Made by a program: the position numbers and the translations under genes. Under the pieces are notes generated by a model. The model had not been told where the DNA came from and ran no database searches. It worked only from the letters and a program-made list of their open reading frames with translations. Below are positions 36,022 through 39,416 of a stretch of 39,416 nucleotides of DNA, one piece after another; positions within the stretch are counted from its first letter, which is position 1; each line of letters opens with the position of its first letter. This DNA comes from Candidatus Shapirobacteria bacterium (GTDB lineage: Bacteria; Patescibacteriota; Microgenomatia; UBA12405): positions 1-39,416 of the forward strand of contig JAPLYY010000069.1 in assembly GCA_026395315.1 (NCBI GenBank), read 5' to 3'.

Positions 36022-39000
36022 TTATTTTTTCATAAACTCCTCAAATTCCTTGTCATCCAAGCTCTCTTTTTCTACCAGTACTTTCGCCAAATCATCCAAT
36101 TTCTTCCTGTCTTTGGTTAATATCTCGCTGGCTCTCTGAAGCGCCGTCCCCACAAATTTTTTAATTTCATTATCCACCTTTCCCATCATTCCGTCCGATA
36201 TTTTTGCCGGTTCAAAATAAGCTCTGCCAAAATCACTCACATCTATCTGCGGCCCCATATTCACCGGTCCCAAATCCGACATTCCCCACTCGATGACCAT
36301 ATTTCTGGCAATATTAGTCACCTGTGAAATATCGCTGGCCGCTCCGGTAGTCATATCTTTAAACACCAGCTCTTCTGCCGCCCGTCCCCCCATGGCCATG
36401 GCCATTTGTTTAATCAATCTCGATTTTGTTTCGTGCACCCGGTCCATCTTTGGCGGAATTAGGGTAAATCCCAGCGCCATTCCCCGTGAAACGATCGAGA
36501 TTCTGTGTACCGGGTCCAAATCTTCCACATAATTTACTATCGCGTGTCCGGCCTCATGATAAGCCGTCATTAATTTATCCTCATCCGTTTGATCCCGTCT
36601 TTTTTCCGATCCCAGTTTCACTTTTAACGCTGACTCTTCAATATCCTGCATCTCGATTTCTGTTTTATTCTCTCTGGCCGCTTTGATCGCCGATTCATTC
36701 AGCATATTTTCCAAATCCGCTCCCGAAAAGCCCACCGTTCTCCTGGCTACTGTTGTCCAATTTACTTCTTTGGCAAAAGGTTTGCCTTTGGCATGAATTT
36801 TAATTATTTGTTCTCTGTCTTTCAAATCCGGCATTTCTAATATCACTCTCCGGTCAAATCTTCCCGGCCGCAATAGTGCCGGATCCAATAAATCTCCCCT
36901 GTTTGTTGCCGCCAGCACCACCACTGCCGTATTGGTTTCAAATCCGTCCATTTCCACTAAAATTTGGTTTAATGTCTGTTCTCTTTCTCCGTGTCCGCCG
37001 TCTAAGCCCCCCCTCATCCGGCCGATAGCATCAATTTCATCAATAAAAATAATTGCTTTTCCGGCTTTTTTGGCCGTCCCAAATAAATCCCGCACCCGCG
37101 ACGCTCCCACTCCTACCAGCATCTCCATAAATTCCGATCCGGCCATTGAATAAAACGGTACATTGGCCTCGCCCGCTACCGCTTTTGCCAATAGTGTATT
37201 ATGGTTTACTAGTCCATTTCCCACAAAGGAATGGTTTCTTGGCACTGTAAAATCATAAACCACTGCCTTACTTTTACTTTTCTCGCTTACTTTAGAAAAA
37301 AATAATTTACTCTCTAAAATCCTTTTAAAATAATCGACCCTTTCCGATTTATACCCCACATTTTTACAATATTTTACAAACACAGCCAACATGTTTCTCG
37401 ATATTCTTCCGTCTCTTCGAACATGACCAATCCTTTTTGACCATAGTTCATTACTCATTTTCTTATTTGACAAGATTTTCCATTCGATATCGATCAATCC
37501 ACCCAAGCCATAAAATAAGTCAATATTGGTATTACTTTTCCCACTTATCTTATTAACCATCGCACTTAACCGGTCTTGTTTTCTTTTAATCGCAAAACCC
37601 ACCTTATTTTTATATTCTGCCAAATAATCCCCTGTTATGGTCAATCTATATACCTGTTTTTTCCCTTTTTTTTCAATTTTGTCTTTAATCTGCAAGCTAG
37701 AAATTATTCCCAAGTTCAACAACATCATTTGTACCTGTCTTATTAATGTCCTACTTACACTTGTATATTCTATTGTCGACCTATTTTTCTGCATATGTCC
37801 ATCAGTATCAAATAACCCTCGAATAAATGCGCTCATTACCCCCTTACTGCCCTGGGTCACACTCTCGGGAACTTCTTTATCAAAAGACAATAAATATGAC
37901 ATTCCCATTTTGTACAAATCCTTTTTAAATCTCCAATTGGTTACGACATGATCATATTTTCCATTTTTATATATTTTTGCTTCTGGATACCTTTCTGTTA
38001 CATATTTACCAAAAAAATTAACCAGCTCTTCATCAGCGTTGGTCAATCCCACCCTACTTGATACTGACAAATTTCCATCGCCCGTCAATACCCCCAACAA
38101 ATATCCCGTTTCTGCATCAATATCATTTCTGTTTCCAAACATCTCCTGTCCAAAACTGACCGCCACTGCGTCCCCAACTTCAATTTCTTCTAATTTTTTG
38201 AATTTTAACTTTCCTTCCTCCATCACCACCACCGGATGTTCAGGTGTTCCTTCTAGTTCGTACCCCTGACATAATTTAATCTTTCTCGTCTCTTGTTCAC
38301 CTAAGTTGTACCATTTACTAGCCCTATTTTTCTGCATCTCTGTTTTTTCTATATCCAAACTGCTCACTTTTACTCCAAAAGTGTTACCACTTTTTTCCAC
38401 CTGATAATATCTCGGCACTTTCTCAATCTCCATCAATCCCTTATTAGTCAAAATCAGAGTTTCCCCGATCACACATTTACCCACCCCTGCCGGCCCCACC
38501 AGCAACACTCCTCTGGGCGCCCTTGCTCCCATCTTCCGGTATTTTTCCGGATGTTTCAAAAAATCCACTACTTCCACTAAATCTCTTTTGGCTTCTTCCA
38601 CCCCCGCCACATCTTTAAAAGTTAGATTTTGTTTACCTTTGACAAACAGCTTAGCGGTTGACTTTCCAAACCCAAACATTCCTCCGGCTCCGCCACCACC
38701 CGCCTGCCGGCTGAAAAACCACACTATAAACGCAATTGGTAATCCCACCGTTAACACCAAACTCAATATATCCATTAATGTTTTCCATCCCTGTTGATTC
38801 TCCACATTAAATTTGACTTTTCCTAAATCAATTCCTTCTCTCTGCAAGATTTCCGCCATCGAGGTTGACGGTTCCTTTGATGCCACCAGAATCTTTTCTT
38901 GGCTCGCCGAAGTCCCTGACGAAGGCGGCAATTTCACCATAATTTCATTATCCAGTACTGTTATTTCCCCCGCCTGCCCCGCTTTAATTGTTTCAATTAT

Positions 39001-39246
39001 GGTTGATAATGGCACACTTTCCGTTGTCTGTGGCACGAAGATCTGTTTTAGAATCGAAATCGCCCAAAACAACATAATTAAATACAATACTCCCTTAATA
39101 ATTTGACTTGGCCCAATCTCAATTCTCTTAATTTTTACTCCCGGTGGCAAATTATCCGTTATCTCTTTAGGAATTTCCTGTTTTTTTTGGACTTTAGGCT
39201 TTAGACTTTTTTTAATTTTCTCCCAAATTCCCTCTTTCTTTATCAT
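36022..39246 (-). CDS. ftsH: ATP-dependent zinc metalloprotease FtsH, interrupted by an intein.
   Basis: Two N-terminal TM helices, split Walker A GPAGVGK/TLLAKAVAGEA, Walker B IIFIDEIDA, SRH ATNRGDLLDPALLRPGRFDR and zinc site HEAGHA. The extein length is 648 aa. Confidence 0.95.
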   Translation of the reverse strand: MIKKEGIWEKIKKSLKPKVQKKQEIPKEITDNLPPGVKIKRIEIGPSQIIKGVLYLIMLFWAISILKQIFVPQTTESVPLSTIIETIKAGQAGEITVLDNEIMVKLPPSSGTSASQEKILVASKEPSTSMAEILQREGIDLGKVKFNVENQQGWKTLMDILSLVLTVGLPIAFIVWFFSRQAGGGGAGGMFGFGKSTAKLFVKGKQNLTFKDVAGVEEAKRDLVEVVDFLKHPEKYRKMGARAPRGVLLVGPAGVGKCVIGETLILTNKGLMEIEKVPRYYQVEKSGNTFGVKVSSLDIEKTEMQKNRASKWYNLGEQETRKIKLCQGYELEGTPEHPVVVMEEGKLKFKKLEEIEVGDAVAVSFGQEMFGNRNDIDAETGYLLGVLTGDGNLSVSSRVGLTNADEELVNFFGKYVTERYPEAKIYKNGKYDHVVTNWRFKKDLYKMGMSYLLSFDKEVPESVTQGSKGVMSAFIRGLFDTDGHMQKNRSTIEYTSVSRTLIRQVQMMLLNLGIISSLQIKDKIEKKGKKQVYRLTITGDYLAEYKNKVGFAIKRKQDRLSAMVNKISGKSNTNIDLFYGLGGLIDIEWKILSNKKMSNELWSKRIGHVRRDGRISRNMLAVFVKYCKNVGYKSERVDYFKRILESKLFFSKVSEKSKSKAVVYDFTVPRNHSFVGNGLVNHNTLLAKAVAGEANVPFYSMAGSEFMEMLVGVGASRVRDLFGTAKKAGKAIIFIDEIDAIGRMRGGLDGGHGEREQTLNQILVEMDGFETNTAVVVLAATNRGDLLDPALLRPGRFDRRVILEMPDLKDREQIIKIHAKGKPFAKEVNWTTVARRTVGFSGADLENMLNESAIKAARENKTEIEMQDIEESALKVKLGSEKRRDQTDEDKLMTAYHEAGHAIVNYVEDLDPVHRISIVSRGMALGFTLIPPKMDRVHETKSRLIKQMAMAMGGRAAEELVFKDMTTGAASDISQVTNIARNMVIEWGMSDLGPVNMGPQIDVSDFGRAYFEPAKISDGMMGKVDNEIKKFVGTALQRASEILTKDRKKLDDLAKVLVEKESLDDKEFEEFMKK
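37198..38475 (-). mobile_element. 426-aa intein with a LAGLIDADG homing-endonuclease domain, inserted in the FtsH P-loop.
   Basis: Begins with Cys (GVGK|CVIGETLIL) and ends with HN|T (GLVNHN|TLLAKAV). Contains TPEHP (block B) and LLGVLTGDGN plus FIRGLFDTDGH (LAGLIDADG motifs). Confidence 0.9.
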
Positions 39247-39258: not shown

Positions 39259-39284
39259 GCATTTTAAATCACTAATTCAGCTTA

Positions 39285-39325
39285 GGCTCCCCTGTCAAGG
39301 GGAGCTCCCGAAGGGAGAGGGGTTT
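39285..39325 (+). repeat. Family A element, variable-hairpin subtype.
   Basis: Sequence ggctcccctgtcaaggggag-CTCCCgaaGGGAG-aggggttt. Confidence 0.9.
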
Positions 39326-39333
39326 TTCCCGCT

Positions 39334-39416
39334 TTATTCCCGTTTTTTCTCCGCACCAATAATATCGCCTCCGACAATCCTCGCTGCCGCCCGGTAACTT
39401 CTCATCTCAATCGAAT
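39334..39416 (-). CDS. 3' end of an unidentified upstream gene (partial).
   Basis: The minus-strand frame is open to the window edge (...SIEMRSYRAAARIVGGDIIGAEKKRE*). It is too short to identify. Confidence 0.3.
   Translation of the reverse strand, partial: SIEMRSYRAAARIVGGDIIGAEKKRE

Follow-up and report, generated by a model that had tools for sequence, protein, structure and literature searches.

The 39,416-nucleotide stretch from a Candidatus Shapirobacteria bacterium analyzed here (contig JAPLYY010000069.1 of assembly GCA_026395315.1; hereafter the window) carries near one end an interrupted ftsH gene, which reads as a single uninterrupted open reading frame (ORF) of 1074 codons on the minus strand (36022..39246, with the ATG at 39246 and the stop codon included). 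The encoded FtsH precursor falls into three parts: i) an N-extein of residues 1-257 (38476..39246, minus strand; GC 42.3%), the last residues of which are the Walker A letters GPAGVGK; ii) an insert of exactly 426 amino acids, residues 258-683 (window 38475..37198, 1278 nt); and iii) a C-extein of residues 684-1074 plus stop (36022..37197, minus strand), the first codon of which (37195..37197) specifies Thr684, at once the +1 residue of the insert and the Thr of Walker A GKT. The insert begins with CVIGETLILTNKGL and ends with NGLVNHN; GPAGVGK precedes it and TLLAKAVAGEA follows, placing the insertion point between the Lys and the Thr of the FtsH Walker A motif with the reading frame kept at both junctions. 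We put at roughly 0.9 the probability that this insert is a class 1 intein that is complete and has a LAGLIDADG homing endonuclease nested within it.

The host and the empty site

The entire precursor scores 680 bits against TIGR01241, the FtsH equivalog of NCBIfam (cut-off 600), and Pfam matches AAA, AAA_lid_3, and Peptidase_M41 in the flanks of the insert. Excision of the 426 residues yields a canonical FtsH of 648 residues in which all FtsH features are present: two N-terminal hydrophobic helices near residues 48-72 and 156-180; Walker A GPAGVGKT at 251; Walker B IIFIDEID at 306; sensor-1 AATNR at 353; DPALLRPGRFDR at 362; and HEAGH at 471, the HEXXH of the M41 protease. The empty site was compared in 27 ftsH genes that lack the intein, all taken from species within the window's family and order. 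On a hidden Markov model (HMM) of intein-free FtsH, the N-extein spans positions 19-233 and the C-extein positions 229-622, and the two meet at positions 229/230, where GKT has its Lys and Thr; the 30 junction residues, APRGVLLVGPAGVGK/TLLAKAVAGEANVPF, are identical to those of intein-free FtsH from four relatives (L028, L031, L034, and L038). The original prediction, made from the letters of the window alone, had placed a 426-aa intein at 37198-38475 within the Walker A loop of FtsH, with the Thr of GKT as +1 nucleophile. Its coordinates, length, and junction residues prove exact to the base on this minus-strand ORF; the TIGR01241, Peptidase_M41, and AAA matches bear out the host; and the alignment with intein-less FtsH that it had proposed as a check rejoins the flanks exactly and locates the split where it had been put.

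Splicing residues and predicted chemistry

The intein (37198..38475, minus strand; 426 aa, Cys1 to His425-Asn426) is assigned to class 1 from its Pfam and NCBIfam matches and from an AlphaFold2 model. Pfam Intein_splicing scores 63 bits on the insert (cut-off 35.8), and the NCBIfam models intein_Nterm (TIGR01445) and intein_Cterm (TIGR01443) cover residues 1-84 and 406-426, respectively; judged by their scores, these family matches are far above chance. Conservation of individual residues was read from allelic inteins excised from 114 database FtsH proteins and then aligned. Block A, CVIGETLILTNKG (38437..38475, minus strand), lies within the TIGR01445 match and supplies Cys1, the first nucleophile; C1 and G4 are invariant in 114/114 alleles. 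Block B, GYELEGTPEHPVVV (38224..38265, minus strand), contains the letters G76-T77-P78-E79-H80-P81 with the T77-x-x-H80 pattern, and T77, E79, and H80 are again invariant in all 114. Blocks F and G, VVYDFTVPRNHSFVGNGLVNHN (37198..37263, minus strand; the TIGR01443 match), contribute D408, H415, the penultimate H425, and the terminal N426, and D408, F409, T410, H415, F417, H425, and N426 are invariant throughout the alleles, as is Thr+1. The Cys start and His-Asn end, and the block B TPEHP, are thus as originally read, and no canonical splicing residue, the loss of which had been named as grounds for abandoning the idea, turns out to be missing.

By established class 1 chemistry, the 1074-aa precursor would first be translated; Cys1 would carry out an N-S acyl shift; the resulting thioester would be attacked by the hydroxyl of Thr+1; Asn426 would cyclize with the assistance of His425; and an O-N shift would restore GPAGVGK-T. 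This would yield FtsH of 648 aa and release the 426-aa intein. Because 426 residues separate Lys from Thr in the precursor, unspliced FtsH should not bind ATP.

In the assembly (843 kb in 127 contigs, 87% complete), ftsH and this intein each occur once. A second intact ftsH, which would have made a decaying pseudogene of this one, was not found in the 87%-complete assembly, and neither was a second copy of the intein. With ftsH single, FtsH function would depend wholly on splicing, to the extent that an incomplete assembly allows. One might still suspect, from a fragmented, 87%-complete metagenome bin and from an intein with GC unlike its flanks (35.5% vs 42-46% in the exteins; third-position GC 35% vs 42-47%), that the insert is a decaying, non-splicing remnant in an ftsH pseudogene or an assembly chimera. 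We consider this very improbable, since i) the 1074-codon frame is unbroken and both junctions are in frame; ii) the catalytic residues of intein and FtsH are all intact; iii) the same architecture at the same site recurs in more than 100 independent assemblies; and iv) the assembly holds no other ftsH.

Two other kinds of element were considered and ruled out: a group I or group II intron or other RNA element, as no Rfam match was found in the region, and a transposon-like insertion, as neither terminal inverted repeats nor a target-site duplication are present at the junctions.

The homing endonuclease and the predicted fold

A double-motif LAGLIDADG endonuclease domain is nested within the intein at residues ~118-293 (37597..38124, minus strand), as judged from Pfam, the motifs themselves, and the predicted fold. 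Pfam LAGLIDADG_3 scores 92 bits on the insert (cut-off 22.5), and Hom_end is matched too. Both LAGLIDADG motifs of the original prediction are present and were checked by hand against the sequence: LLGVLTGDG, intein residues 126-134 (38074..38100, minus strand), with D133, and IRGLFDTDG, residues 218-226 (37798..37824, minus strand), with D225. These catalytic Asp residues are kept in 112/114 alleles (D133) and 113/114 (D225), and the endonuclease halves have a mean pairwise identity of 52-53% vs 55% for the N-terminal splicing domain. Deletions or a lost Asp affect only 5 of the 114 alleles; the window copy is full length with both Asp present, and its endonuclease appears intact.

Between the endonuclease and block F lies a helical region, intein residues 297-389 (37309..37587, minus strand), with five predicted helices from H297-310 to H378-388. 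It is the least conserved part of the intein (40% mean pairwise identity), and a Pfam search with residues 297-389 matched no family. From its position in the layout of HINT, homing endonuclease, and accessory domains described for a related intein (PMC8966425), we infer that it may be an accessory or DNA-recognition domain.

The AlphaFold2 model of the intein (67 sequences; mean pLDDT 92.6, pTM 0.92) predicts a beta-rich splicing domain (residues 1-107 plus 391-426) with the HINT fold; two endonuclease halves, each an alpha-beta-beta-alpha-beta-beta-alpha unit (residues 121-291); and the five-helix region (residues 297-388). A Foldseek search of the PDB with this model places endonuclease-bearing inteins on top: TliVMA (7qss), PI-PfuI (1dq3), PI-PkoII (2cw7), PhoVMA, and PI-SceI. 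Free LAGLIDADG enzymes (I-DmoI and I-Tsp061I) rank next, with target-normalized TM scores of 0.6-0.75. The best match, TliVMA (E 3.6e-25; TM 0.70/0.69), is the intein of the Thermococcus litoralis V-ATPase A subunit, inserted at the VMA-b site in the P-loop (PDB 7qss; PMC8966425). The two inteins are alike in size (426 vs 429 aa), in combining HINT, LAGLIDADG endonuclease, and an extra domain, and in their P-loop site; they differ in that TliVMA is archaeal, occupies another ATPase family, and is only 21% identical in sequence, and in that the region following the window's endonuclease is helical and has no family match. Accessory domains are reported to differ widely among inteins (PMC8966425).

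Among solved structures, those closest in sequence are two inteins, Pho CDC21 and Pho RadA, and PI-PfuI. The Pho RadA (4e2t) and Pho CDC21-1 (6rpp) inteins match the splicing domain of the window intein, and PI-PfuI (1dq3) matches its endonuclease half; the RadA and CDC21 entries are short, at 168-174 residues vs 426 here, and PI-PfuI is inserted not in a P-loop but in the Pyrococcus furiosus ribonucleotide reductase RIR1. Both short Pho inteins presumably lack an endonuclease, and we take the RadA intein to use the Walker A Thr as its +1 residue.

Alleles in other genomes

Distribution was counted over GTDB species representatives. Among the 40 species nearest to the window's, the intein occurs in 0/40 and ftsH is uninterrupted in 28/40, so that intein-free alleles, suggested originally as something to look for in relatives, are indeed there. 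A sample of the class yields the intein in 12/400 species distributed over six families, with 0/26 in the window's own family, and a sample of 400 from the phylum gives a single match, in a genome that belongs to the window's own class.

A protein search gave at least 240 matches, and the best 120 listed consist almost entirely of FtsH proteins 1000-1100 aa in length, most of which come from Patescibacteria. More than 100 public FtsH proteins, again mostly patescibacterial, bear the same allele, and in every listed FtsH match that could be parsed the insert lies at exactly GxGK-C...HN-T. Allelic inteins are 425-435 aa long in nearly all cases, and exactly 426 aa in 52 of the first 102 extracted. 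Those from Ames-, Davies-, Levy-, Blackburn-, Pace-, Campbell-, and Liptonbacteria share host, site, blocks, and LAGLIDADG motifs with the window copy, to which the allelic FtsH inteins are 40-83% identical (P0003 stands at 83% intein identity; P0011 is another example); none of these proteins is called an intein in the source names seen. FtsH proteins of ~1500 aa (P0005, P0014, P0018, P0028, P0049, P0064, and others) combine the P-loop intein with a second, unrelated intein, located either at a site that we call b (HMM position ~261-266) or near sensor-1 (~320-332).

It could be argued that such an element persists because it benefits the host, as a co-opted switch in which conditional splicing would keep a reserve of the sole AAA+ membrane protease of the cell inactive until splicing is triggered by a signal, be it redox, temperature, metal, or substrate, with FtsH from Candidate Phyla Radiation (CPR) bacteria, the AAA module of which has at least three sites for inteins, as a preferred target. 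The site in the catalytic P-loop of an apparently essential single-copy enzyme would suit this role; length and sequence are unusually uniform over diverged hosts; and conditional splicing is documented in other P-loop inteins, e.g. Pho RadA (PMC5790916). We nevertheless think a switch that gates FtsH improbable. Only ~3% of the sampled species of the class, and 0/40 close relatives, bear the intein, and one would expect a useful regulator to be kept. Moreover, the second Cys of the window intein, C69, is not conserved: other alleles have Ala, Lys, Gln, or Arg in that column, a pattern that speaks against a conserved disulfide trap.

Other inteins were seen in the AAA module of ftsH in relatives belonging to the window's family and order. 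At site b, just past the pore-1 loop, four genes (L042 in G018, L043 in G013, L046 in G036, and L047 in G031) have inserts of ~437-454 aa that read VGVGA-S(V/T)GDTP...LLHN-SRVRD (hyphens mark the junctions), and at site c, at sensor-1, two genes (L043 in G013 and L044 in G033) read VVLAA-SV(V/T)GETP...LLHN-SNR; G013 has both. Inteins at b and c have Ser1 as their first residue and Ser at +1, and their terminal blocks are alike (...NEAFFGGE.P.LLHN), which suggests a single intein family occupying two sites of the same gene. Elsewhere ftsH is itself divided: G012:C35 (L045) has it as three ORFs (HMM positions 19-266, 261-340, and 343-621) and G003:C61 (L048) as two (18-189 and 212-623). These splits could be frameshifts, broken inteins, or assembly errors.

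Vertical or horizontal history

The extein and intein trees disagree. In the extein tree, the window FtsH is sister to the intein-free FtsH L031 (G011), with support 97/87 and 89% identity in the C-extein, and the next branch is another intein-free protein, L034 (G007), with support 98/93; the nearest intein-bearing FtsH proteins, P0003 and P0004, are just 80% identical in the C-extein and lie elsewhere in the family clade. In the intein tree, the window intein groups with those of P0003, P0004, and P0005 (support 99), and the sister of this group is the inteins of P0006-P0009, which belong to another host clade. P0122, with a host within the window's family grouping, shares 83% intein identity with P0119, the host of which belongs to a different clade. 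In an approximately unbiased (AU) test, the hypothesis that the inteins of own-family hosts form a single clade is rejected (p = 4.6e-5). Judging from these trees, the FtsH P-loop intein family appears to have moved between hosts, and for its spread we propose homing: the freed intein would act as a site-specific endonuclease and, when the DNA of another cell is present, would cut intein-free ftsH at the GKT-coding site, whereupon repair from the intein-bearing copy would insert the element into the cut allele.

Several points weigh against this account, or against the intein reading from which it starts: i) the low GC of the intein may be due in part to its Lys/Asn/Ile-rich composition, not to foreign origin; ii) 87% completeness leaves room in the genome for a second ftsH; iii) the group rejected by the AU test at p = 4.6e-5 was chosen after the identities were known; iv) AU tests on the extein tree do not reject one clade of intein-bearing family hosts (p = 0.06 and 0.09), so that one old gain followed by several losses is possible for the window's intein lineage; v) in codon alignments of the window gene with two intein-bearing (P0003 and P0004) and four intein-free relatives, third codon positions are near saturation, with 39-60% identity throughout, which speaks against recent homing; and vi) the same alignments reveal no stretch of raised identity flanking the intein, i.e. 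no co-conversion tract, at these saturated third positions.

The missing tract and the extein-tree test at p = 0.06 would sit comfortably with an intein that splices but has an endonuclease that no longer homes, a vertical passenger repeatedly lost within the family through conversion by intein-free alleles, and so would the observation that divergence from the nearest relatives is similar for the intein and for its host (80% nucleotide identity). We regard this as unlikely, though less so than the switch or the remnant discussed above: both catalytic Asp residues survive in ~98% of the 114 alleles; the endonuclease halves are conserved like the splicing domain; intein and host trees are in conflict (83% identity between the P0122 and P0119 inteins, across host clades; AU p = 4.6e-5); and precise loss, too, needs an empty allele to exchange with. 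The window's lineage may have gained its intein recently or may have retained it while relatives lost theirs; either route requires exchange with other alleles.

Kinship with other P-loop inteins

Searched against 1.84 billion representatives (50% identity), the intein recovers 376 proteins at E <= 1e-30, with FtsH alleles ranked top and other AAA proteins next. In 47 of the 56 full-length matches listed (some of them FtsH), G-x-(G/A)-K stands directly before Cys1, and Thr or Ser follows the terminal Asn. A Pfam scan for hosts, covering 43 of the 56 and mostly picked outside FtsH, returned UvrD/Rep (15-21), RecD2 (6), RecA (3), DnaB-like (3), AAA (3), and PhoH (1); identity to inteins outside FtsH is 27-41%. 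With 47 of the 56 at a Lys-Thr/Ser junction across hosts, the FtsH intein by sequence kinship belongs to a broad related group that shares one type of site across non-orthologous nucleoside triphosphatases. The 'classic' P-loop insertion point (PMC5050341) lies between the invariant Lys of Walker A and its nucleophilic Thr/Ser, and classic P-loop inteins include mycobacteriophage TerL1-a, DnaB-b, MCM-a, and RFC-S-a (PMC5050341, PMC4760082). The window intein resembles them in its position within the motif and in the use of the Walker A Thr as +1 nucleophile, and differs from them in its host, the membrane AAA+ protease FtsH.

We found no description of FtsH inteins in the literature, whether in the context of P-loops, CPR, Patescibacteria, Parcubacteria, or Microgenomates, and the main text of a large intein survey (PMC4760082) does not include FtsH. 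Papers on phage MIJ3 and on green-alga chloroplasts mention both FtsH and inteins, but in different genes. FtsH had originally been remarked upon as a less familiar host than the usual ones: this holds for the literature, where no paper on an FtsH intein was found, and fails for the databases, which contain the allele in more than 100 FtsH proteins. As an intein host, then, FtsH is uncatalogued in the literature and common in public Patescibacteria genomes.

Other features of the gene and its neighborhood

The pore-1 loop of the window FtsH, EMLVGVG (window ~37090-37110; residues 282-288 of the spliced protein), has Leu at the aromatic position, where E. coli FtsH presumably has Phe228. The consensus of intein-free relatives likewise has Leu there, so we take it for a lineage trait. 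Upstream of ftsH, ~35-90 nt from its start (window 39281-39335), are two GC-rich hairpins, CTCCCCTGTCAAGGGGAG and CTCCCGAAGGGAG; a scan for promoters and terminators gave nothing useful, promoter-like sites being no commoner than expected from shuffled sequence. The contigs of P0003 (L049) and P0004 (L050) both have a DUF4012 gene and a small RNHCP-domain gene upstream of ftsH, and as the window extends 170 nt upstream of ftsH, any synteny with these two contigs would lie beyond it.

What an FtsH intein means

The element is real but is an ordinary selfish element, a textbook class 1 intein at the classic Lys-Thr P-loop site, and nothing here will surprise an intein specialist. FtsH, an AAA+ protease anchored in the membrane and active in quality control, here joins the hosts of classic P-loop inteins, which have so far been catalogued mainly in ATPases of replication, recombination, and repair. 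The many related Thr+1 inteins, and LAGLIDADG enzymes apparently aimed at a highly conserved sequence, may also be of practical value. For the bacterium itself, an ultra-small member of the CPR with a genome of ~0.85-1 Mb and one ftsH, FtsH activity would rest entirely on protein splicing. For the CPR, the biology of which is otherwise hard to study, an endonuclease kept at near-constant length in more than 100 diverged alleles, together with patchy distribution and tree conflict, implies DNA exchange and homologous repair between lineages.

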